Counted from the stretch's first letter, positions 4,127 through 27,110 are shown. The stretch is DNA of 64,000 nucleotides from Thermoplasmata archaeon (GCA_021798195.1 JAJZYH010000001.1:4351-68350); one strand, 5' to 3'. Numbers and translations: made by a program. The notes: generated by a model not told the origin, from the letters alone.

Positions 4127-4597
4127 TGGGGAGATGCATCTCATCAGTCGTGCCATGAATGAATCACGCCGCGCACGAGATTCTGGCACATGGTCGAAGA
4201 AGAGCTGCAGCACTGTGGCGAGATGAACGCTCTCTTGTGGCACCGCGGATGGGAGGCACCGGGCGTGGGGTACCACGAATGGACCTGGGAGTGGGGGGCG
4301 ACTAAGGAACGGGTGCGCGGCTCAGCTGTTACCTCTTTGCCTCAAGATAGAATGGGTACGGACCCTCAGGTCTCCGACCGTTCTCCACTGCGCTCGGACG
4401 AACTGAAGGATGGCCTCTCGCTGTGGTTGGGTCAGCCTTAGACTTCCACCCCGGGGGCTTGGGAGGCGATTTGCGCCTTGCGGCGCTCGGTGTAGCCCCG
4501 GACCCCGTGGGGGTAGGCGAAGGGGTACCTGGTGGTCTCCCTCCGGCGAGCCATCCCGCTGAGAGAAGGGAGTGCAAGGATAGGAACTGAAGTGAAG

Positions 4598-4682
4598 TGC
4601 AGGGGGAGGGATTTGAACCCACGAACTCCTACGAGACCAGACCCTGAATCTGGCGCCTTTGACCAAGCTAGGCTACCCCTGC
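4598..4682 (-). tRNA. tRNA-Leu (anticodon CAG), long variable arm
   Basis: The reverse complement reads GCAGGGGTAGCCTAGCTTGGTCAAAGGCGCCAGATTCAGGGTCTGGTCTCGTAGGAGTTCGTGGGTTCAAATCCCTCCCCCTGC. The 7-bp acceptor stem pairs, the anticodon loop is TTCAGGG, the T-loop is GGTTCAAATCC, and a 14-nt variable arm gives about 85 nt. There is one T-stem mispair (T-T) in my hand-fold. CCA is not encoded. A TATA-like ataaaag lies about 30 bp upstream (4712-4718). Confidence 0.75.
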
Positions 4683-15589: not shown

Positions 15590-16765
15590 ATGGCCCCTCC
15601 GGTCCCCCGGCGGCGGGAATACGAAGTCATCATCGTGGGTGCCGGTGTGCTGGGCCTTTACACCGCGCACTACCTTTCCCAGCGGATGGACCCGGGGCGC
15701 ATCCTGATCCTGGAGAAGGGGTACCTCTCCGCGGGGGCTTCGGGGCGGAACGGGGGCGGAGTGCGGCAGCAGTGGGAGACGGTCCCCACGATCCGCCTGG
15801 CGCAGGAGTCCGTGGCCTCCTACCGCAGGTTTCCCAGGGAGTTCGGGTACAACCCCTGGTTCCGCCAGGGGGGGTACCTCTTCCTCGCGCTCGACGAGAA
15901 CGAGGAGGCGATCCTGGGGAGGACCCGCTCCGTGCTCCGCCGGGAAGGTCTCCCGGTGGAATGGCTGGAGCCCCGGGAGCTGGGCCGGCTGGTGCCGGCC
16001 CTGTCCCGGGAAGGGATCCGGGGCGGGAACTACCTACGCTCCGACGGGGTCATCTTCCCGTTCCCGGTCCTCTGGGGGCTCTACCAGGACCTCCGTCGGA
16101 GGGGGGTGGAGATCCTCCTGGGGACCGAGGCCCAGGAGATCCTTCGCTCGGGCGGGCACGTGGCGGGCGTCCGCCTGCCGCAGGGTCGCGTGGACGTCCC
16201 CACCGTGGTGAATGCGGCGGGGGGATGGTCCCGCGAGGTGAGCCTCCGGGCGGGGCTCACGGTGGTGAACCAACCCAGCCGGCACGAGATCCTGGCCACC
16301 GAACCCCTCAAGCCGTTCCTGGATCCCATGGTGGTGACCCTGCGCCGGGGGCTCTACTTCTCCCAGTCCATGCGGGGGGAGATCATCGGGGGGCTCACCC
16401 TCTCCGAGCCCGCGGGAGGGGATCACGGGATGCCCTCGAGCTCCCGCTTCCTGGGGGAGATGGCGCGGGAGCTGGTGCGCTACCTCCCCGCCCTCACGTC
16501 GGTGCGCGTGCTGCGCGCCTGGGCGGGGTTCTACGACGACACCCCGGACGGCCTCCCGGTGATGGGGGAAGACCCGCGCCTCGCCGGCTTCATCCAGGCC
16601 AACGGGTTCGGGGGGCACGGGTTCATGCTGGCTCCGGCGGCGGGGCGCCGCGTGGCGCAGATCGCCCTGGGGGAGCCCACGGACCTCGCGCCCGGGGTAT
16701 TCTCTCCGGACCGCTTCCAGACCGGCGGCCCTCCGCCGGTCCGGGAAGGGCTCCAGCTGGGATAG
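15590..16765 (+). CDS. FAD-dependent oxidoreductase, sarcosine-oxidase-beta / archaeal L-proline-dehydrogenase-beta-like
   Basis: YEVIIVGAGVLGLYTAHYL, GRNGGGV, and C-terminal ANGFGGHGFMLAPAAGRRVAQ. The TGA stop of the upstream gene overlaps its ATG (operon). Confidence 0.9.
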   Translation: MAPPVPRRREYEVIIVGAGVLGLYTAHYLSQRMDPGRILILEKGYLSAGASGRNGGGVRQQWETVPTIRLAQESVASYRRFPREFGYNPWFRQGGYLFLALDENEEAILGRTRSVLRREGLPVEWLEPRELGRLVPALSREGIRGGNYLRSDGVIFPFPVLWGLYQDLRRRGVEILLGTEAQEILRSGGHVAGVRLPQGRVDVPTVVNAAGGWSREVSLRAGLTVVNQPSRHEILATEPLKPFLDPMVVTLRRGLYFSQSMRGEIIGGLTLSEPAGGDHGMPSSSRFLGEMARELVRYLPALTSVRVLRAWAGFYDDTPDGLPVMGEDPRLAGFIQANGFGGHGFMLAPAAGRRVAQIALGEPTDLAPGVFSPDRFQTGGPPPVREGLQLG

Positions 16766-16859
16766 ACCGCTTCCGACCCTCCTGGCGATCCGGGATATGC
16801 CGGCCGCTCCATGCCACGGGGGGACCACGGGGGTCGGGTCCACTGGACCGGGGGCCCGT

Positions 16860-17387
16860 TCAATGGGGCGGTGGCGGGAGTTGAACGCGGAAGAGCATCT
16901 CGTGCCGGGCGCCCGAAGGATGGAGATGGCTCTCCATGAGGAGCACCGAACCCACCGGAGCCGAGGCGAAGGTGGTCTGGCCATGGCGCGAGAGGAGGTC
17001 CATCGCCCAGCGTTCGTCCCGAGGGCCCCGGACACGGCGCACCGTCACGTGGGGATGGAATGGCCGATCCTCCCGGGGGAATCCCAGCCCGGCGAGCGCG
17101 TCCTCCACGCGGCGCGCGAGCTGCTGGATCTCTTCGGCGCCCTGAGAAATGGCCACCCAGACGACCCGGGGTCGGCGGGAGGAGGGGAAGGCTCCCAGGC
17201 CCGCGTAGGTGACGGGGAATGCGAAGGCCCCCTGGAGGGCCCGCTCCAGGGCCCGGCCAATGTCCCCCACCCGGTCGGGAGGGACCTCCCCCAGGAACTT
17301 CAGGGTGAGGTGCCGGGGCGCTCCGGTGTCCGCGGGCAGGCCCGGGACCACGAAATCGGGGACCGGGGTCGCGATGAAGAGGCGCAT
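16860..17387 (-). CDS. thpR: RNA 2',3'-cyclic phosphodiesterase (2H phosphoesterase, ThpR/LigT family)
   Basis: MRLFIATPVP...HLTLKFLGEV...PHVTVRRV. Two H-x-T/S-x motifs; 175 aa. Confidence 0.85.
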   Translation of the reverse strand: MRLFIATPVPDFVVPGLPADTGAPRHLTLKFLGEVPPDRVGDIGRALERALQGAFAFPVTYAGLGAFPSSRRPRVVWVAISQGAEEIQQLARRVEDALAGLGFPREDRPFHPHVTVRRVRGPRDERWAMDLLSRHGQTTFASAPVGSVLLMESHLHPSGARHEMLFRVQLPPPPH

Positions 17388-17428
17388 GGTGCCCGAGGGA
17401 TCCCTTACACTCAGCGCTTCCTCGCATT

Positions 17429-20338
17429 TCAATTCCCGGAGGCAACCCCTCTTTCCTCGGCAGGGGGTGATCCTTCCCGGGAGGCGAGGAAGGGGACCTC
17501 CCTCCTGGGACGCAGGACCCATACCGTGGCATCCCGGGGGGTGGCCCCCATGGTCCGCAGGAAGCGGCGGAGCCGCTTCCCTCCCGCGGAGGTCCCCGTG
17601 AGGAGGAGGAGGTGCGCACCGGCGCGCTGGGCCTTCTGCCAGGTCCGGGCGAGCCGCCGGGGATCCCGGAGGCTGGACACCTCGGCCTCCACGAAGATGG
17701 GTCGCCCGTGCCCCAACCGGAGGAGCCACCGGAGACCCTCTCCCGCGGAACCGCTGGACGGATCACCTCCTCCCTCCGGGGTGGGGGGCAGGGGGATCCA
17801 GGCATCGGGCTGGGTCCGTTCGAAACCCCCCTGCCGCGGCAGGATGAGCCGCAAGGCGTGACGGGCGAAGATCCGGAATGCGATCGCCACCAGTTGCCGG
17901 TGCTCCTCGGATTCCCGGGGAGCCCCCGAGTCCGGAGAGAGGCCCAGCCGGGCCCACCCCGCCTCGGTGAGGTCCCAGGAGCCGGTTTGCGTCCGGTGGA
18001 TCCAACCGCGCCGGAGCGCCCCCTCGGCACCCGGGAGCTCCCTTCCATGGGGGTTCCCCCCGGATGCGGCGATCTTTAGGAGGAGAGATTCGGGTGAGGC
18101 GGTGCCTTCGCCGCGGGAGGGACAGAACTCCTGGGCGGAGCGATCCGAGAGCTCCTGCCATGACACCGAGGAGACGGGTTCCGGTGGAGGGAACATCCAC
18201 AGCTGGGGCTGGGTCATCCCTTCTCCTCGCACCCATGCCATGTGGGTGGGGAGGATGGTGAGGTCCTCCTCCATTCTCATGGGGGGTATCGGACCCCCCC
18301 GCGCCACGAGACCCAGGAGGGTGGAGAGGCGGGGGGCCTCCTCGGCGGGTGTCCGCAGGACAAAGAGCGTCTGGACATTGGCGAGGGTCCCCCGCCCCAG
18401 CCCTTCTTCGAGGTGGGAGAGCGATTGCGTGGCCATCACCACCCCCACCCCGAACTTCCGGCCCTCTTCCACCAGGGTCCGCAGGAGGGACGGGGCGTAG
18501 GATTGCGCCTCATCGAGGACGAGGAGGGCCCGGACCTCCGCTCCCCGGGAGGTGGGGCCCCTTCGCAGGAGGCTCAGGAAGACGCGCATCAGGAGAAGGT
18601 TGGCCAGGGACCGGCCCGCCGCCGCCCCCCAAAACTCCCGGGGAAGGTGGATGATGAGGCTCCGGCCCATGCGGAGAAGGTCCGCGGGGTCGATGCCGCC
18701 GTCCCCCGGAGCCACCACGCGTCGGAACCGCGGGGAGAGGGCGGCCCGGGCGAGCCGGTTCTGCGCCGAGGAGAGGAACTCCGGCTGACGCCGTGCGAGT
18801 GCCGGGAGACCTTCGAGGAACTCCCGGAGATTGGGCTCCCGGACCGATGCGAGGAGGGGCGCCGTGGAGGACGCGGGCCGGAACAGGAGGTCTGCCACCT
18901 CCGCGAGATCCCCTCCCGCTCCCACAACGGACCGGATGGCCCCGTCGAGGATGCGTTCCAGTCGCGGTCCCCAGTACTCTTCCCCCCGCCCGGGGAGCGG
19001 GCGCAGGGCCTCGAGAACCTCCGAAGTGAGAAGCTCGATCCACTCCTCGCTGGGTCGTGGGGTCCCTCGGGAGGACCCCCCGCCGGATCCCAGGACATCG
19101 ATGCCCACGAGCCCATCCTCCAGTCCCCGGGTCCCGTCGAGGAGCACCAGACCCATCCGGCGGGGAGGAGGGAGCCGGCTCACGACTCCCGGTCCCAGGT
19201 CCCCATGGAGGTCCCACAGGACCACGGGAATGCCGGCGAGGATGGCGGTGGTGGCCAGGTGGATCAGGAATTGCGTCTTCCCGCTCCCGGAGGATCCCAG
19301 GACCGCCGCGTGACGGAGGAACTGGGACCACGGGAACGAACCTCCGGGATCCCCGTTCCAGCGGGCGCCCAGGTGGGCCCGGGCGCGGGAGTCCCCGACG
19401 GGAAGGATGGAGCCGGTCCGGGGAAGGCGGAGGGCTCCGGAGCCCTCTCCGGGAACGAACCAGGGACGCGCCAGGAGTTCCGCAGGCGGGCATGGGTTCC
19501 GCCCGCTGTGGAACCGGAAGACGCTCCGCTGGGTCCATTCTTCCTTCCATCCGGGGGGTAATCCCCCGGTGGTCCTCAGCACCAGGGGGCGACCCCCGGT
19601 GAGGATGGCCCAATGGTGTGCCAGTCGCCCGCTCCCGGAGGTGCCTCGGGGGCCGCTCATCCACCGGATGTGTCCGAAGAGACGAGGAGGGCGGTCCCCC
19701 CGGGGGACATCCCAGACGAAGAGGGCCTGCACGGCCCAGGGGGGCGGGACGCGGGGGATGTCCGGGGGAGATTCCGATCCCTGCGTGTCCCAGATGCTCC
19801 GGATGGGGGGCCGGGGCGGATATCCCGAAACTTCACCGCCGCTCCCGGGTGGGCTCCACACCACGCAACCGGCCTCACCCACTCCGTCCCATGGAGAGGG
19901 TAGTGCTTCCGGGGGTGCGACCGGGACGGCCCGCAGACATTCCCGGGCCCAGGCGTCCTGGATCCCCGCCAGGGGAGGGAATGGGGAACGCATCTGGAAC
20001 ACCTCCCGCTCTGTACCGGTACCCAGCTCGAGGACGAGCGGTTCTCCGGGGAATCGGAGCAAATGGGAGAGCCAGGCGCGGACGAGGGCGGGGATGGGCC
20101 GGGGAACCCCCGGGTGGCTCAGCGACCACCAGGAACCGGAGGTCACGGGACCTCCCAATGGGGAGAGGGCTCCGCCAGAGTGAACCGTCTCAAGATGGGA
20201 TCTCTCCCCTGGATCCAGAGGAGGAGGCCTTCCCCTCGGGTCCAGGTGATGAGCAGGGGGGTACCCGGAAGGCGCCAGGAACTGGCGGGCCACTCCGGGA
20301 GGTGAGGAGGGGAGGAGACCGTCATTCCCTCCCTCCAT
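17429..20338 (-). CDS. HerA/FtsK-like (DUF87) P-loop ATPase with a long N-terminal proline-rich region and a C-terminal winged-helix + restriction-endonuclease-like (PD-(D/E)xK-like) module
   Basis: Walker A VLGSSGSGKTQFLIHL followed by VVLWDLHGD (the HerA hGEY-like strand). Walker B LLVLDEAQSYAP; EGRKFGVGVVMATQSLSHL (HerA/FtsK RKxG...Q motif); TLFVLRT. C-terminus: a wHTH-like segment (SPESLLLKIAASGG...LTEAGWARLGL), then ...TQPDAWIPLP...GRPIFVEAEVSS...TWQKAQ, which I read as the PD/ExK-like motifs of a PD-(D/E)xK nuclease-like domain. The first 340 aa are Pro/Gly-rich with no domain I recognise. The start is uncertain (alternative internal Met codons). Confidence 0.65.
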   Translation of the reverse strand: MEGGNDGLLPSSPPGVARQFLAPSGYPPAHHLDPRGRPPPLDPGERSHLETVHSGGALSPLGGPVTSGSWWSLSHPGVPRPIPALVRAWLSHLLRFPGEPLVLELGTGTEREVFQMRSPFPPLAGIQDAWARECLRAVPVAPPEALPSPWDGVGEAGCVVWSPPGSGGEVSGYPPRPPIRSIWDTQGSESPPDIPRVPPPWAVQALFVWDVPRGDRPPRLFGHIRWMSGPRGTSGSGRLAHHWAILTGGRPLVLRTTGGLPPGWKEEWTQRSVFRFHSGRNPCPPAELLARPWFVPGEGSGALRLPRTGSILPVGDSRARAHLGARWNGDPGGSFPWSQFLRHAAVLGSSGSGKTQFLIHLATTAILAGIPVVLWDLHGDLGPGVVSRLPPPRRMGLVLLDGTRGLEDGLVGIDVLGSGGGSSRGTPRPSEEWIELLTSEVLEALRPLPGRGEEYWGPRLERILDGAIRSVVGAGGDLAEVADLLFRPASSTAPLLASVREPNLREFLEGLPALARRQPEFLSSAQNRLARAALSPRFRRVVAPGDGGIDPADLLRMGRSLIIHLPREFWGAAAGRSLANLLLMRVFLSLLRRGPTSRGAEVRALLVLDEAQSYAPSLLRTLVEEGRKFGVGVVMATQSLSHLEEGLGRGTLANVQTLFVLRTPAEEAPRLSTLLGLVARGGPIPPMRMEEDLTILPTHMAWVRGEGMTQPQLWMFPPPEPVSSVSWQELSDRSAQEFCPSRGEGTASPESLLLKIAASGGNPHGRELPGAEGALRRGWIHRTQTGSWDLTEAGWARLGLSPDSGAPRESEEHRQLVAIAFRIFARHALRLILPRQGGFERTQPDAWIPLPPTPEGGGDPSSGSAGEGLRWLLRLGHGRPIFVEAEVSSLRDPRRLARTWQKAQRAGAHLLLLTGTSAGGKRLRRFLRTMGATPRDATVWVLRPRREVPFLASREGSPPAEERGVASGN

Positions 20339-20687
20339 TTGCCCCCGCGACGCGCTCCTCGATCTCCCGGATCGCCGTGGCCAAGGGGAGCAGGTGCGAG
20401 GCCTCGGCCCATGCGAGGAGGACGGGAGCCGGGAGGTCGCGCCATTGGGGCCGACCGGAGGGATCCGGGAGACGCAGGCGCCAGACGTGGAGCCCCGCGG
20501 GGGTCCGGATCCGATGCGCCAGGGGCCGTACGCTGAGGGTCAGGGGGACCCGGACGGATCCGAACCAGAGGGTACCCGCAGGGAGGTGCGGTCCCTCCGG
20601 ACCCTGGGCGGGGTGGTTCTCTCGGAGGGTGGCTCGAACGGGTTCCGGGCGGGTGCGTTCGCCCGCCAGATTTTCCACTGCGCTCAT
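20322..20687 (-). CDS. Hypothetical small protein (about 121 aa), possibly co-transcribed with the HerA-like gene
   Basis: ORF MSAVENLAGERTRPEPV...LLAWAEASHLLPLATAIREIEERVAG. Its stop overlaps the start of the HerA-like gene by 16 nt. No family recognised. High GC makes this call weak. Confidence 0.3.
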   Translation of the reverse strand: MSAVENLAGERTRPEPVRATLRENHPAQGPEGPHLPAGTLWFGSVRVPLTLSVRPLAHRIRTPAGLHVWRLRLPDPSGRPQWRDLPAPVLLAWAEASHLLPLATAIREIEERVAGANGGRE

Positions 20688-21468
20688 AGAGGGCCTTGAG
20701 GGAGACCCCCTTCCGTGGGCGGAGGGGAACTCCCACGGGACCCCTGGGACCGACCTCACCACGCGTCCCGGGAATCTTCGGGACGGCGGAGGGGGGAGCC
20801 TTCCAGGGTCGGGAAGGGCTCGAGACGGAGTGGGCGACTCCCAGGACGGAGTCCGGGGTCGTCTGCGAGGTCAGCCTCCCACTGCTCCGGGGGGATCCGG
20901 AAGGCCGACGCACGTCCGTCCAGGTCCGGGCGACGAGGTCGAGCGGTCAGGAACTGACCGGAAAGGGCCTCGAGGGATCCCCGGTCGGGAATCCAGTGGC
21001 GGAGACGGGACGACCGATCCCCCGGTCCAGCTCCCGCTCCCCGACGGGTGCAGCCGTCCGCGGCCGACTCGGGCGAGAGCCGACTGCGGCGGACACCTTC
21101 CGAGGCGTTGGCGACCACGGAGGGGGCAGAGGGAGGGGCGGCGCAGGAAGCGGGGTCCCCCACAGTGCGGGCTCCACGGGTCGTCGGCGATCTGCCCACG
21201 GGATGGAACCGGTTCGCAGCGAGGTTCGGGGCCCTTGGGCGTCCAAGATCCCGGAAGGTCGCTGGCGTACGGAATTCGTTCCCGCAGATGCGTGTTGGTT
21301 GGAGACGGGAGAAGGGAAGGACCAAGTGAGTCGATTCCACCGGGCGGGACGGTGAACGATGCCTGCCCGCCGGGCGGTGCAGGGCGTGCCGTATGACCGT
21401 CCCATCGTTCCCGTGGACCGCGTCGTTTAAGAAACGAGACCGAGAACCAGCGGGACGGGAGAGAAGGG

Positions 21469-22389
21469 ATGGCCCTCGCGAGCGACTACTACGAGGTGCT
21501 GGGGATTCCCCGGGGGGCGGACCCCGAGACCATCCATCGGGCCTACCGGAGGCTCGCGCAGCGCTGGCATCCGGACCGGAACCCGCACGATCCCCGGGCG
21601 TCGGAGATGTTCCGGCGCCTCAATGAGGCGTACCACGTCCTCGCCGATCCGGCCCAGAGGAGGACGTACGACGCCCGGTTCTCCTGGGCGGTCTCCACCC
21701 GGGCCGACGTGGAGGCCCGGGTCACCCTCGGCCTCCGGGACGCCTACCGGGGGACCACGCTCCGGTTCTCCGTCCCCCACGCCATGGTCTGCCTGGATTG
21801 TGGCGGGCTCGGGCACCGGCCCGAAGGCGTCCCGGTGACCTGCCCCCGCTGCCATGGGTCCGGGTTCGAGGAGGCGCAGAGCCTCTACCGGACGGAGGTG
21901 CGATCGGTCTGTCCGTCCTGCGGAGGGCGCGGGGGCCGCATCGACCGTTCCCACGAGGGCCCCTGCCCCACCTGCCGGGGTCTGGGAATGGTGCTGGGAG
22001 AGACCAGCATCGAGGTGAAGGTGCCCCCGGGGGTCGACGAGGGGATGCGGCTCAAGGTGCGGGGGCAGGGACGCCCCCTCCTTCGGGGAGGCCGGGGGGA
22101 CCTGTACCTGGTGGTGCATCTGCGCCCCGGACCCTGGCAACGCGACGGACAGGACCTCACGGTACCGGTGGATGTGCCGGCCCAGACCCTCCTCGCCGGG
22201 GGACGGGTCCCGGTGGCGCTGCCCGACGAGACGATCTGGGTCACGATCCCCGAGGGGGCGGAGGAGGGGAGCCGGATCCTCCTCAAGGGACGCGGGTTCC
22301 CCGCGTTCGCGGGGCGCCCTCCGGGGGACCTCACCCTCATCCTGCACCGGCGGGATGGCCCGTCGCAAGGACCCGATCCAGGTCCCTGA
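21469..22389 (+). CDS. DnaJ-class chaperone (J-domain + four CxxCxGxG zinc-finger repeats + C-terminal substrate-binding domain; no G/F-rich region)
   Basis: DYYEVLGIPRGADPETIHRAYRRLAQRWHPDRN (HPD motif). Zinc-finger repeats CLDCGGLG, CPRCHGSG, CPSCGGRG, CPTCRGLG. 306 aa. Confidence 0.85.
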   Translation: MALASDYYEVLGIPRGADPETIHRAYRRLAQRWHPDRNPHDPRASEMFRRLNEAYHVLADPAQRRTYDARFSWAVSTRADVEARVTLGLRDAYRGTTLRFSVPHAMVCLDCGGLGHRPEGVPVTCPRCHGSGFEEAQSLYRTEVRSVCPSCGGRGGRIDRSHEGPCPTCRGLGMVLGETSIEVKVPPGVDEGMRLKVRGQGRPLLRGGRGDLYLVVHLRPGPWQRDGQDLTVPVDVPAQTLLAGGRVPVALPDETIWVTIPEGAEEGSRILLKGRGFPAFAGRPPGDLTLILHRRDGPSQGPDPGP

Positions 22390-23496: not shown

Positions 23497-25101
23497 TCAG
23501 AGCGAGATGGGCACCCCGGGCACCGGATGCACCACTTGGATGCGGGTCCCCTGGAGCAGGCGGTCGTACGCGCGGGGGGTCTCCGTGTGGATGGGGATCA
23601 ACCGGTGGGGGTTCGCCCTCCGAACGAGTTCCACGAGGTCCCTCTCGGGCGCATGACCGGAGGCGTGGTAGCCCCGATCCTCGGGATGGTCGAAGCGGGG
23701 TCGCAACGTACCCTCCCGGTCCCGCTCCAGCCGGAACCCCACCACCTTCATGCGAGCCCACTGGGTCCATGCTTGCAGGCGGACGAAATCGAACTCCTGC
23801 TCCTCGCCGTGGGCCTCGCTGGAGGAGTAGAGCCAGAGCCCCCCCGGTGTCGCCTTCCGGAGATCCACGAGGTCATTGGCGTCGAAGAAGCTGAAGCAGA
23901 GGATCCAGTTCCCGGGAGTCGCCGCGATGTCCTCCGGGTCCAGGAAGGCATCGGAGTACCGTTCCTCGATGCGCTGGAGGGGAGCCCGCGATTGGAGGGT
24001 GGGTTCCCGGAGGATCCGCATCCCTCCGGGATCCATGTCGTGGGGGATGGCGGGGTCCACCCGGCTCAGGAGGTCCAGGATGTGGGCGTCCTTGGGGACG
24101 AGGACCAGTTGGCGCCCCGTCTCCTGTGCGACCTCCCGGAACGTCTTCAACCTCTCCACGTTGCGGGGCCCGAAATCCGCCACCACGAGGCGTCCCTCGT
24201 ACTCTCGGACCTTGGACAGAGACCTCCCCTTCACCGTGGCCTCGCTGGGGGAGGGTCCGAGTGGCTCCTCCGGGGAGGATCCGAGACGCGTGCCCTCCAC
24301 GACGAGCACGTCGGGGTTCCGATCCTCCAGTCGGCGCATCAAAGCCTCGGTATCGCTCCCGTGCTCCCCGTGGAACCGAAGGTCCCCGCTGTAGGCCACG
24401 CGGCTTCCGTCCAGGTCGAGGATGTAGGCGACGCCCCCGTACACCGAATGGTCCACGGGACGCGCATCGAGCCCGATGGAGCCCACGCGGAGGGGGGCGG
24501 GACACGGGTCCCTGGGTTCGAAGGAACCTCTCTTCGGGTTGGCGTAGGGACTTTCCCGCAGGCGCTCCACAAACGGATCCGGGGCGTCCCCCAAGGACCA
24601 GATGACGCGGGTCTCCCGGTTCTCGGAACTCTTGAGCAGGCGCGGGTCCTTGGCCTCGCGACGGGTGAGATAGGTGACCTCGGTCTCCGGCCCTCCCGTT
24701 GCCGTCTCCTGCCACGAGCGCAGGAGGGCCAGGGTCATGGGCGTCATCACCACCGGGAGTTCCGGCCGCAGGAACCCGACCGCGCCCGCGTGGTCCAGGT
24801 GGCCATGGGTCACCAGGACCGCATCGGGGGGAACCCCGTCCCACTCCTCGTCCTTGTGGGGGAAATCCTGCTGGGGGAAGAGATCCTCCCGGTAGAAGCC
24901 CCGGAGCGGGGGCAGAAGGCCCAATGCCAGGTAGTCCACGAGGCCCCGGGAGGGCCGGGGTTTCACGAACTCCTCGTAGTACTGTCCCATGCGGCGATAG
25001 TTGGTCCCGAAGTCCAGGAGGAGCCGGGTCGCTCCATCGGTGAGGAGCATCTTCGTTCCTCCGATGGAGTCGTGGCCGTCGAAGACCGTGAGCGCGCCCA
25101 T
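23497..25101 (-). CDS. Metallo-beta-lactamase-fold hydrolase, beta-CASP/RNase J-like
   Basis: VLVTHGHLDHAG (HxHxDH), later D and H motifs. 534 aa, consistent with beta-CASP ribonuclease-like proteins. Confidence 0.75.
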   Translation of the reverse strand: MGALTVFDGHDSIGGTKMLLTDGATRLLLDFGTNYRRMGQYYEEFVKPRPSRGLVDYLALGLLPPLRGFYREDLFPQQDFPHKDEEWDGVPPDAVLVTHGHLDHAGAVGFLRPELPVVMTPMTLALLRSWQETATGGPETEVTYLTRREAKDPRLLKSSENRETRVIWSLGDAPDPFVERLRESPYANPKRGSFEPRDPCPAPLRVGSIGLDARPVDHSVYGGVAYILDLDGSRVAYSGDLRFHGEHGSDTEALMRRLEDRNPDVLVVEGTRLGSSPEEPLGPSPSEATVKGRSLSKVREYEGRLVVADFGPRNVERLKTFREVAQETGRQLVLVPKDAHILDLLSRVDPAIPHDMDPGGMRILREPTLQSRAPLQRIEERYSDAFLDPEDIAATPGNWILCFSFFDANDLVDLRKATPGGLWLYSSSEAHGEEQEFDFVRLQAWTQWARMKVVGFRLERDREGTLRPRFDHPEDRGYHASGHAPERDLVELVRRANPHRLIPIHTETPRAYDRLLQGTRIQVVHPVPGVPISL

Positions 25102-25865: not shown

Positions 25866-27110
25866 GGCTTTGGCACGAAACCTCATCAAATACCCCCGTA
25901 GGTTACCCATCTTGCCGACACATGCGGGCTATTTCCTTCCAACATCAAAGTCCGGACGGGCTGGAACGGACTCTTTCCGACACCCGGTCGATGGTACGCC
26001 ATCTGCTCGCCGTCGCATTGAAGGAGCGAGTCACATCGGCCATCGCCCTTCGGAAGCGGACCAAGGAGTGGTTTCGCACGTCGTGGCGTCACCGATACGC
26101 CGCGTCCTACCACGAGTCGGCCTGTTCGACGGCGATGGGAATCGCCCGCTCCTACCTTCGCCTGAAACGAACCGGGGTCCGGGTCGGAGAACCCCGTGCG
26201 AACCGGCTCCGCATCACCCTCCACCAGAGCCTCTCCCGCATCAAGGACGGGGCACTCCGGGTCACGGTGCGGCCCGGGGTGTACCTCTACTTCCCTCTTG
26301 CCGATGCGGTGAGACACAAACACAAGCGCTGGCCGGAATGGTCGGTTCACAAGCTCGGAGAGGTCACGCTCACCAAACGGTCGGTCGTCCTGCCGTTCCA
26401 AGTGCCCGAGGAACCCAAGCGAACGGCGGAGGCCACCGTCGGCATCGACCTCAACCTTCGGCACGCGGATATGCTTTCGGATGCGATGTCCGAGCGAGTT
26501 CCCTTGGACCGACTGGCAAATGCCCAGTCCCGATTCCAGCGGCTCCGCGAATCCGTGCAACGGAGAATGCCGAAGAACCTCCAACGGCAACGCCGCGTGC
26601 TTCGCCATCATCGAAACCGTCAGCGGAACGTCGTGACCGACATGGTGCGGAAGGACGTCGCTCCGGAAATCGTGAAACTCGCCGGCGGGCGCAATATCGC
26701 TTTCGAGGACCTCTCGAAGATGCCGAGAGGGAATGGGCCGAGCCGAGACCTGAGACGAAAGCTCTCCCGTTGGACCTGCGGGCTCCTCCAACGGGAAGTC
26801 GAACGAAGGAGCCCGGCGCGTATCGTGTACGTGAACCCGAAGGGGACCTCCCAGGAGTGTCCCCGGTGCGGTGGGAAAGTGAGCCACCCTGCGTGGAGAA
26901 AAGCACGATGCGCGAACTGCGGAGACTTCGACCGCGACCGCATGGCGTCGGCAAACATCATGTCGCGCGGTCATCGTCTCCTTTGGGGACAACCGCTTGC
27001 CCCGAGTGCCCGAGCCTCTGCGGCGGAGCTGGCCCGGTGGACTCCCGAAAGGGACTCCGAAGGGCCGACGCGACCGAAGCCGTACGACGGGTAGGTTTTG
27101 TGCCAAAGCG
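25866..27110 (+). mobile_element. IS200/IS605-family (IS1341-like, tnpB-only) insertion sequence, about 1.25 kb
   Basis: A single intact tnpB is flanked by about 17-bp imperfect inverted repeats (ggctttggcacgaaacc at about 25866-25882; ggttttgtgccaaagcg at about 27094-27110; 15/17 match). These are bracketed by an identical 9-bp direct repeat gccctatcc (about 25857-25865 and 27111-27119). The left end has locally lower GC. Coordinates are +/-1-2 nt. Confidence 0.65.
25922..27094 (+). CDS. tnpB: TnpB (IS605 OrfB family RuvC-like RNA-guided endonuclease/transposase accessory protein)
   Basis: RuvC-I TVGIDLNLRH (D); RuvC-II IAFEDLSKMP (E); zinc finger CPRCGG...CANCG; RuvC-III GDFDRDRMASANIM (D). 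390 aa, apparently intact. Confidence 0.9.
   Translation: MRAISFQHQSPDGLERTLSDTRSMVRHLLAVALKERVTSAIALRKRTKEWFRTSWRHRYAASYHESACSTAMGIARSYLRLKRTGVRVGEPRANRLRITLHQSLSRIKDGALRVTVRPGVYLYFPLADAVRHKHKRWPEWSVHKLGEVTLTKRSVVLPFQVPEEPKRTAEATVGIDLNLRHADMLSDAMSERVPLDRLANAQSRFQRLRESVQRRMPKNLQRQRRVLRHHRNRQRNVVTDMVRKDVAPEIVKLAGGRNIAFEDLSKMPRGNGPSRDLRRKLSRWTCGLLQREVERRSPARIVYVNPKGTSQECPRCGGKVSHPAWRKARCANCGDFDRDRMASANIMSRGHRLLWGQPLAPSARASAAELARWTPERDSEGPTRPKPYDG

Follow-up and report, generated by a model that had tools for sequence, protein, structure and literature searches.

Archaeal conjugative plasmids and the Ced and Ted systems possess VirB4, and the plasmids have VirD4 homologs as well; no relaxase is known in archaeal conjugation, and the generation of the transferred DNA substrate is listed as an open question (PMC9905601, PMC12857230). 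Ced and Ted are domesticated conjugation machineries of Crenarchaeota for the import of chromosomal DNA, and HerA-NurA has been proposed to make their substrate (PMC9905601, PMC11868833). Combinations of a restriction endonuclease (REase) with a HerA/FtsK motor have been described in DndH and in the 'HerA-FtsK capture' systems (PMC10853773). The published description of Cuniculiplasma genomes contains a passage that lists, for Thermoplasmatales, a VirB4 cluster (arCOG05340/04034/05369) and, at a separate site, an ATPase of the TraG/TraD/VirD4 family (arCOG04816) (PMC5155288). Against this background, we analysed a 64,000-nucleotide stretch of DNA from a Thermoplasmata archaeon (GCA_021798195.1, JAJZYH010000001.1:4351-68350; hereafter the window, from whose first letter positions are counted). 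It contains a gene for a coupling-protein-like ATPase that carries a C-terminal winged helix-turn-helix (wHTH) and a restriction-endonuclease-fold domain, here called the ATPase-nuclease.

We consider it highly probable that this gene encodes a fusion of a coupling-type motor, a wHTH and an REase-fold domain, that it is a homolog of plasmid coupling proteins with both catalytic centres under purifying selection, and that it is co-transcribed with two small upstream genes, ORF-A and ORF-B. Coupling proteins, REase-motor fusions and domesticated conjugation systems are already known, as are type IV secretion system (T4SS) components in Thermoplasmatales annotations. The wHTH-nuclease module on archaeal coupling proteins, the fixation of the module gene in the chromosome as part of the core, accompanied by two orphan partner genes, and a three-way link between the ATPase-nuclease, a VirB4 cassette and a methyltransferase all appear to be undescribed in the literature searched. 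The gene is a testable candidate for the DNA-processing enzyme of archaeal transfer, a coupling motor with its own invariant wHTH-nuclease module, and this module is conserved from haloarchaeal plasmids to a core chromosomal gene of soil and peat Thermoplasmata.

Domain architecture and relation to plasmid coupling proteins

The preliminary description of the locus had read a HerA/FtsK-like ATPase, a winged helix and a restriction-endonuclease-like C-terminal core by eye. The protein was split and its parts were modelled with AlphaFold2 (AF2) using the family alignment. Profiles and models confirmed the single-chain architecture of motor, winged helix and PD-(D/E)xK domain, and the separate modelling of the parts bore out the by-eye reading of the C-terminal half (Table 1). 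The family is now annotated as 'ATP-binding protein' or 'hypothetical'.

The motor scored above the Pfam cutoffs for TrwB_AAD_bind and TraG-D_C, and DUF87 also matched. Profile searches of PDB sequences returned HerA, TrwB, IcmO, DptH and TdpA (8wiv, 8xau, 4d2i and 8j4u for HerA-type). The NCBIfam models for CedD, CedB, TraD and HerA stayed far under their cutoffs, the HerA models reaching 12-20 bits against cutoffs of 800-970; the sub-cutoff matches to CedB and CedD ran through the P-loop core only, to which all sequence-profile matches were confined. The assignment to the P-loop superfamily stands, that to HerA proper does not, and 'HerA-like' should be sharpened to 'coupling-protein/VirB4/DptH-like'. 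As in type IV coupling proteins (T4CPs; VirD4/TraG/TrwB), the P-loop domain of the superfamily is present with Walker A and B, arginine finger and sensor Gln. The nucleotide-binding domain also has the all-alpha insert of this class in its predicted structure, as six to seven helices (model residues 367-478) between Walker A and Walker B. Compared with TrwB/VirD4 (PDB 1e9r), the window protein lacks the N-terminal transmembrane (TM) anchor, has no known relaxase partner, and adds the C-terminal wHTH and nuclease as well as an N-terminal alpha+beta domain.

The C-terminal domain has the alpha-beta-beta-beta-alpha-beta core fold of PD-(D/E)xK nucleases; the alternative named in the preliminary description, a region without a nuclease fold, was not borne out. 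Its motifs are E809-x2-E812-H813-R814 (17897-17914), Q836, P844-D845 (17804-17809), E884-A-E886-V-S (17675-17689) and K902 (17633-17635). All of the following are invariant: E809, which belongs to helix 1; P844-D845, which precedes a strand; and E884-A-E886, which forms part of the strand after that. The canonical Lys position is occupied by Glu (ExE), and an invariant lysine, K902, is found on the following helix, giving a variant PD...ExE signature. BamHI uses ExE. Across 87 orthologs, down to ~34% identity, the nuclease residues E809, H813, Q836, D845, E884, E886 and K902 are invariant, as are the Walker A lysine, the Walker B DE, R627/K628 and the sensor Q638 of the motor. No Pfam or NCBIfam model matches the nuclease domain, ORF-A or ORF-B.

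The N-terminal domain was modelled, with moderate confidence, as beta-alpha-beta-beta units. This alpha+beta prediction is unlike a plain all-beta HAS barrel, the fold that the preliminary description had named as an alternative for the region. It is the most variable part of the protein and could not be aligned between the two clades of orthologs defined below, between which tblastn matches start only at ~residue 343. Profile searches with Pfam, PADLOC, NCBIfam and PDB gave no family match for the domain, and a comparison with DUF8128 was negative.

To trace the C-terminal module, its profile was searched exhaustively against 1.84 billion representatives. Besides the family itself (~86 clusters below 1e-30), the search recovered larger proteins in the tail of the results. 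Eight of these were scanned, and in seven a TraG/TrwB/DUF87 ATPase was again followed by the wHTH-nuclease module. The tail proteins with names were haloarchaeal and annotated as 'type IV secretory system conjugative DNA transfer family'. The family profile aligned with the T4CP of Halogranum gelatinilyticum (WP_089698588.1) from Walker A to the end of the nuclease (hhalign probability 99.4%, E = 2e-21, 567 columns), and the EHR, Q, PD, EAE and K motifs are common to the Thermoplasmata family and the haloarchaeal proteins. A plasmid protein of Halalkalicoccus jeotgali B3 (WP_049934780.1) aligned likewise (hhalign probability 94.9%). Full-length homologs occur on at least 52 haloarchaeal plasmids in PLSDB.

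These haloarchaeal T4CPs, which are also annotated as 'TraM recognition domain-containing protein', resemble the window protein in their homologous motor, wHTH and nuclease, in the lack of a TM segment, and in size (~900-950 aa). They differ in being borne on plasmids or islands, inside a T4SS-like cluster (VirB4-like, TrbL_3, PrgI/TraC-like, DUF8128). The Halogranum gene cluster comprises TrbL_3, PrgI-TraC-like, DUF8186 and DUF8128 genes, and on H. jeotgali B3 plasmid 2, the one plasmid context inspected, the homolog adjoins a VirB4-like gene. Motor identity to the window family is ~21-25%; the haloarchaeal proteins have ~200 extra C-terminal residues but not the alpha+beta domain of ~275 aa at the N-terminus, and neither ORF-A nor ORF-B nor ThpR was detected with them. 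The preliminary description knew of no such arrangement, yet it has a precedent in these plasmid coupling proteins, which align across motor, wHTH and nuclease. Since haloarchaeal plasmids carry the same three-domain protein, descent from a coupling protein is indicated: as judged from sequence, the three-domain architecture is that of an archaeal conjugative coupling protein, chromosomally fixed in Thermoplasmata. The suggested link to mobile-element biology is supported. The standard coupling protein of haloarchaeal conjugative plasmids carries an unannotated C-terminal wHTH and REase-fold module (L090:10001-12847, L111:12193-14991 and the at least 52 plasmids), a candidate DNA-processing nuclease where no relaxase is known.

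Homology to plasmid proteins would also be expected of a decaying remnant of an integrated conjugative element, and by eye a TnpB-like ORF lies ~6 kb off (25922-27094); alternatively, the ORF could be a fusion of two genes by assembly or annotation artefact. We regard either explanation as extremely improbable, and the conservation data effectively refute both already. The catalytic residues of both domains are invariant, as described above. The frame is intact in independent assemblies, and the full-length members listed of the 33-member cluster that contains the window protein are all 905 aa. Because 87 orthologs in independent assemblies have the same full architecture, the ORF is not a fusion artefact, a doubt that had been raised for the longer reading. 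The chromosomal position is conserved, and the flanking genes identified by Pfam or by synteny with L001 and L089 are chromosomal and not integrases, although no scan was aimed at integrases or attachment sites. A search of IMG/VR viral contigs found no relatives of the gene, and a viral origin was rejected on this ground.

Distribution and synteny in Thermoplasmata

In a scan of one genome per GTDB species, the gene was found in at least 123 species-level genomes, a count that is a lower bound. All are metagenome-assembled genomes (MAGs) of Thermoplasmata; peat and acid soils are their main sources, and a single genome bears the label Ca. Lutacidiplasmatales. The gene is single-copy and occupies the same chromosomal slot in >100 species-level genomes. 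Clustering of 87 loci separated a main clade (76 loci) from the clade of the window (11 loci). The main-clade block consists of SoxA-like, DAO, DUF4147, HxlR, ORF-A, ATPase-nuclease and ThpR genes, an opposite-strand HhH-GPD gene, and then a ~900-aa surface protein. In the window's clade, the gene lies mostly between DnaJ and ThpR/DAO/SoxA, and in some loci beside an MFS transporter.

When metagenomic loci were sampled via the ~900-aa neighbour gene, ATPase and ThpR were present in 10 of 10 informative loci. The gene is therefore apparently core and vertically inherited, and not an island gene, so that the variable-island context first considered was not borne out. Of the opposite expectation, a conserved housekeeping context without a nuclease fold, only the first half describes the gene, which is core and syntenic.

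Within the main clade, motor and nuclease are ~60% identical, similar to the HhH-GPD (64%) and DUF4147 (56%) neighbours; the wHTH is at 38%. Between clades, the window protein is the most divergent among its neighbours (34% versus 42-59%). The label of a 'fast-evolving conflict gene' would be only partly true: in the main clade, fast evolution is limited to the wHTH and the N-terminal domain.

The downstream 2H phosphoesterase noted in the preliminary description was verified as ThpR/LigT: TIGR02258 matched with E = 2e-33 and 115.8 bits (curated cutoff 65.7), and both HxT motifs, HLTL and HVTV, are present. It lies 41 nt downstream of the ATPase-nuclease, with which it is probably co-transcribed. 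Of the 87 loci, 71 have ThpR behind the ATPase; in 68 of them nothing intervenes, and in the other three a methyltransferase is inserted. This neighbourhood bears on a possible role in genome maintenance, in which a cytoplasmic translocase-nuclease would resect or resolve DNA ends or junctions as an analogue of HerA-NurA or FtsK, and ThpR would take part in nucleic-acid end healing. HerA-NurA, Sir2-HerA and DUF4297-HerA likewise pair a ring ATPase of the FtsK/HerA superfamily with a nuclease or effector. Such a role would suit a core, vertical, single-copy gene that evolves at ordinary rates and a soluble product with no TM segment. It would also suit the many loci with ThpR directly behind, the HhH-GPD glycosylase as next neighbour in the main clade, and the ORF-A/ATPase/ThpR trio, which is intact though the SoxA-DAO block flanks opposite sides in the two clades.

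However, ThpR is absent beside the gene in the MFS, Pus10 and VirB4-cassette contexts, and methyltransferases insert between ATPase and ThpR. It is not an obligatory partner; because it is left behind in other contexts and separated by these insertions, it is probably a conserved operonic neighbour and not a mechanistic partner. To our knowledge, ThpR is an RNA-end enzyme with no coupling to DNA repair, which also counts against a maintenance role. The closest relatives of the ATPase-nuclease are plasmid conjugation proteins, not repair proteins, and the NCBIfam HerA equivalogs were far below their cutoffs. No Mre11, Rad50 or NurA was found among the immediate neighbours scanned, in agreement with the earlier remark that no NurA partner was visible. 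Taken together, a function in genome maintenance seems decidedly unlikely.

Two further observations concern the neighbourhood. In main-clade loci, the lineage-specific ~900-aa protein encoded two genes beyond the ATPase on its downstream side (L004:14179-16968, L005:13439-16210, L006:14380-17034) has a C-terminal hydrophobic segment and a conserved cytoplasmic tail, and shows weak similarity to the first protein of the VirB4 cassette described below (tblastn E to 2e-9). In another context (L087:7461-7916 (+), L052, L073), the order is Pus10/DUF6015/ATPase/PrsW, with a 151-aa DUF6015 protein in the place of ORF-A, to which it is unrelated by hhalign.

Links to a VirB4 cassette and a DNA methyltransferase

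When the Thermoplasmata loci were searched with the proteins of the haloarchaeal clusters, matches were found in one subclade only (L018, L025 and L051). These three loci lack ThpR, and in them the ATPase-nuclease gene directly neighbours, in convergent orientation, a cassette of which five genes were recognised. The ATPase of the cassette is a clear VirB4 (NCBIfam conju_CD1110, E = 7e-33; VirB4_CagE, E = 9e-15). Its homologs fall into at least 197 clusters (54-92% identity), and the named clusters among the 120 listed are Thermoplasmata MAG proteins, some of them labelled VirB4/TraC at source. The cassette is a seven-gene chromosomal operon beside YjgF-fibrillarin (L112:5608-12244 (+), L113:5799-12224 (+), L018:9833-16502 (-)), and takes the same fibrillarin-flanked position in L112, L113, L018, L025 and L051. 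In L006 and L028, this cassette shares a contig with the ATPase-nuclease gene, at a distance of ~72 kb and ~33 kb, respectively.

The cassette encodes a PKD-like (surface) protein of ~500-570 aa; a 127-aa pilin-like protein with a signal-like N-terminus and two hydrophobic helices separated by a basic loop (T4SS_pilin, E = 0.008, sub-cutoff); a 383-aa polytopic membrane protein with ~6-7 hydrophobic segments; two membrane proteins of 259 and 123 aa; VirB4; and a 173-aa protein. In appearance, the operon resembles a domesticated T4SS of the Ced/Ted type, here in a lineage other than Crenarchaeota. Ced and Ted are alike in having chromosomal, vertical T4SS-derived genes (a VirB4-like ATPase and, with putative counterparts in the cassette, a polytopic VirB6-like channel and a small two-helix pilin), with components sometimes dispersed over distal loci. 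The chromosomal, vertical VirB4 homolog that characterises them is present in relatives of the window and not in the window itself. The layout in Cuniculiplasma is also the same, in that a VirD4-family ATPase is separate from a chromosomal cluster of membrane protein, VirB4, multipass and Thermoplasmatales-specific membrane protein genes; the passage concerned lists genes only and, as far as it goes, mentions neither a nuclease domain nor small partner ORFs, and neither a link to a methyltransferase nor a function (PMC5155288).

An N6/N4 methyltransferase is convergent with the cassette in two loci (L112:12150-12917 (-), L113:12221-13033 (-)). It is 45-47% identical to one found directly downstream of the ATPase-nuclease in L003 (12633-13682) and L007 (9675-10733). 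A second methyltransferase type, for which the relation is at motif level only, takes the same slot in L001 (12904-13950), L011 and L089 (10869-11987). A methyltransferase thus lies directly downstream of the ATPase-nuclease in 5 of 11 window-clade loci and in none of the 76 main-clade loci. Adjacency and methyltransferase orthology together establish three pairwise links: ATPase-nuclease with cassette, cassette with methyltransferase, and methyltransferase with ATPase-nuclease.

These links, with the homology to plasmid coupling proteins, suggest that the gene may encode the coupling and DNA-cutting or processing subunit of a domesticated conjugation-like DNA-transfer system, analogous to Ced and Ted, in which it works with the chromosomal VirB4 cassette, a proposal to which we would give an even chance. 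The protein would translocate DNA as a soluble ring, in the manner of type IV coupling proteins (VirD4/TrwB-like), and would bear the wHTH and nuclease at its C-terminus. The nuclease is predicted to be metal-dependent, with a PD...ExE active site and the lysine on the following helix. The wHTH would position the enzyme on DNA, which the nuclease would nick or cut, and a presumably hexameric motor would thread the DNA to or from a membrane channel. That channel may be the separately encoded VirB4/pilin-like/polytopic-membrane cassette, so that the protein would supply both coupling and DNA processing in place of a relaxase. The N6/N4 methyltransferase, which is linked to both modules, may label DNA either for cutting or for protection from it, and ORF-A and ORF-B, from the same operon, would probably be stoichiometric partners or regulators. 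On this account, a coupling protein of archaeal conjugative elements would have become a fixed, vertical chromosomal gene in a high-GC soil and peat lineage of Thermoplasmata.

Several observations weigh against this proposal. The 64-kb window lacks the genes of the VirB4 cassette and both types of methyltransferase. Only one subclade, of 3-4 species, has the cassette directly beside the gene, and in two other verified genomes the modules are 33-72 kb apart, which alone would be weak linkage. The likeness of the cassette proteins to VirB6 and VirB2 consists of topology and one sub-threshold Pfam match, and hhalign detected no homology between the cassette polytopic protein and haloarchaeal TrbL_3, so this candidate relationship was rejected. 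Ced and Ted themselves have neither a VirD4-type coupling protein nor a fused nuclease. Unlike bacterial coupling proteins, the window protein showed no N-terminal TM segment and no TM helices in a hydropathy scan. Finally, the single structure that the motor matched best was that of DptH, which is a defence protein.

The last point raises the alternative of stand-alone, restriction-like defence. Here, a captured coupling motor would act as an ATP-driven translocating endonuclease against plasmid or viral DNA, while the methyltransferase would mark self and ORF-A and ORF-B would regulate or inhibit. The recruitment of a methyltransferase twice in the window's clade and the 'HerA-FtsK capture' precedents (PMC10853773) are, like the DptH match, in its favour. 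Defence islands are patchy, however, whereas this gene is core, single-copy and syntenic in >100 species, with a motor and nuclease that evolve at ordinary rates in the main clade. Neither the main-clade loci nor the window has an adjacent methyltransferase, and the cognate methyltransferase of a restriction-modification system was not found in the window, where no homolog of either type occurs. One methyltransferase type also adjoins the VirB4 cassette, so that the methylase link equally fits a transfer system.

No DndF/G, BREX or other partner was found. The PADLOC check proposed for the locus returned no system and only partial single-gene matches (mad8, HerA, DndH) via the P-loop core; the DndH match spans only ~45 residues around Walker B, and the neighbouring genes scanned had no PADLOC match. 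In DndH, of the DndH/DptH group (PDB 7es4), the domain order is reversed, with the REase ahead of the motor. Relative to DndFGH and the 'HerA-FtsK capture' systems, the window protein lacks SNF2-like, TRD and inactive-methylase domains as well as DndF/G partners, and its gene is core and syntenic, not mobile. We regard a defence function as fairly unlikely.

Returning to DNA transfer, a more far-reaching version of that proposal is possible but doubtful. This Thermoplasmata lineage may operate a machine for DNA exchange that was domesticated from conjugation independently of Ced and Ted, which would make it the third of its kind and the first in archaea other than Crenarchaeota. In it, the VirD4-nuclease would be a relaxase substitute feeding a VirB4/VirB6-like channel, and the methyltransferase would choose the DNA. 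The window family belongs to another phylum than the Ced/Ted hosts and comes from soil and peat MAGs. The findings suggest that domestication of conjugation machinery, reported so far only in hyperthermophilic Crenarchaeota, may have occurred in a second archaeal phylum as well, where the components would differ and include a VirD4-nuclease, a pair of small orphan partners and a DNA methyltransferase that is linked to the system.

Gene model, operon layout and other window features

The 17429..20338 (-) open frame of the preliminary description, read as a 969-aa protein, is present and contains every motif quoted for it: GSSGSGKT, WDLHGD, LLVLDEAQ, EGRKFGVGVVMATQ, QPDAWI, FVEAEVSS and TWQKAQ. 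Its length and start were corrected. A database protein of 905 aa (P0001) is 100% identical to the window protein, the other full-length members listed of its 33-member 90% cluster share that length, and homolog alignments begin only at ~residue 65 (969-aa numbering). The periodicity of GC at third codon positions (GC3) across 20338-20159 matches a frame other than that of the 969-aa ORF and supports the frame of ORF-B. A GGAGG motif precedes the GTG at 20146, which overlaps the stop of ORF-B as GTGA. For these reasons, the 969-aa reading was dropped and the true start is most likely GTG 20146. With this start, the N-terminal region claimed as ~340 aa does exist but shrinks to ~275 aa.

Table 1. 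Positions of the operon genes, protein domains and promoter-region element in the window
Feature	Position	Strand	Description
ThpR/LigT RNA 2',3'-cyclic phosphodiesterase (2H phosphoesterase)	16860..17387	-	175 aa; TIGR02258, Pfam LigT_PEase
ATPase-nuclease (coupling-protein-like ATPase, wHTH, restriction-endonuclease-fold domain)	17429..20146	-	905 aa from the most likely start, GTG
PD-(D/E)xK fold domain	17516..17923	-	motif set given in the text
Winged helix-turn-helix	17948..18094	-	residues ~749-797; most variable folded part of the C-terminal half
P-loop motor	18239..19333	-	FtsK/HerA superfamily, VirD4/VirB4/DptH branch
Arg/Lys and sensor Gln of motor	18425-18466	-	EGRKFGVGVVMATQ
Walker B	18503-18526	-	LLVLDEAQ
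All-alpha insert in motor	18713-19048	-	AF2 model
Walker A	19274-19297	-	GSSGSGKT
Disordered Pro/Gly-rich linker	19334-19543	-	after the N-terminal domain
N-terminal alpha+beta domain	19544..20146	-	residues 65-265 (969-aa numbering); AF2 model
ORF-B	20143..20325	-	60-aa orphan protein; translational coupling on both sides (ATGA, GTGA), GC3, weak homologs
ORF-A	20322..20762	-	small orphan protein; ATG 20687 (121 aa) or GTG 20762 (146 aa), start uncertain
AT-rich box GTTTAAGAAAC	21425..21435	.	between the divergent DnaJ gene (21469..22389, +) and the minus-strand operon; sequence inspection

The minus-strand operon with small upstream genes and downstream ThpR was borne out by the ATGA and GTGA overlaps, the GGAGG motifs and the recurrence of ThpR behind the gene. 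Its order is ORF-A (20322..20687 or 20322..20762), ORF-B, ATPase-nuclease, spacer and ThpR. ORF-A corresponds to a small ORF already proposed at 20322..20687, which is real: 59 of the 87 loci have a homolog at this position ahead of the ATPase. GC3 periodicity supports its frame from ~20700 to 20322. It has a conserved core of ~75 aa (G-VRVPL...LW-LRL...), encoded at ~20334-20561. Pfam and PDB profile searches found no relative of ORF-A, and kinship with DUF6015, DUF8128 or the haloarchaeal 458-aa T4CP-adjacent protein was ruled out (all hhalign probabilities <1%).

ORF-B had been overlooked. Its ATG (20325) is preceded by GGAGG and overlaps the stop of ORF-A as ATGA. Weak homologs take the same position in the closest relatives only, L001 (63 aa) and L003 (72 aa), with tblastn E ~0.006-0.008, and L009 and L010 carry similar ORFs of 73-78 aa.

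A further upstream ORF in the preliminary description, 20756..21340, did not hold up and was rejected as a gene together with 20947..21405: neither has family matches or homologs, and the GC3 pattern does not fit their frames. The ~660 nt between ORF-A and the AT-rich box (20763-21424), in which no supported ORF and no Rfam match was found, would be a long leader or else a small gene or RNA that went unrecognised. In L001 and L089, the equivalent region holds a gene for a 118-123-aa membrane protein, which has no homolog in the window. The AT-rich box GTTTAAGAAAC is the sole one between the DnaJ gene and the operon, and no run of five or more T or A occurs in 16500-21600. Its position agrees with the AT-rich divergent promoter placed earlier at ~21420, and it is a possible TATA-like element.

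Elsewhere in the window, a 390-aa ORF at 25922-27094 (+) has CPRCG...CANCG cysteine pairs and by eye resembles TnpB/OrfB of the IS200/IS605 type. A 534-aa ORF at 23497-25101 (-) contains a THGHLDH motif and is probably a hydrolase of the metallo-beta-lactamase fold (beta-CASP-like). The sole RNA gene that Rfam detected in the 64-kb window is a tRNA-Leu(CAG) at 4597-4682 (-).

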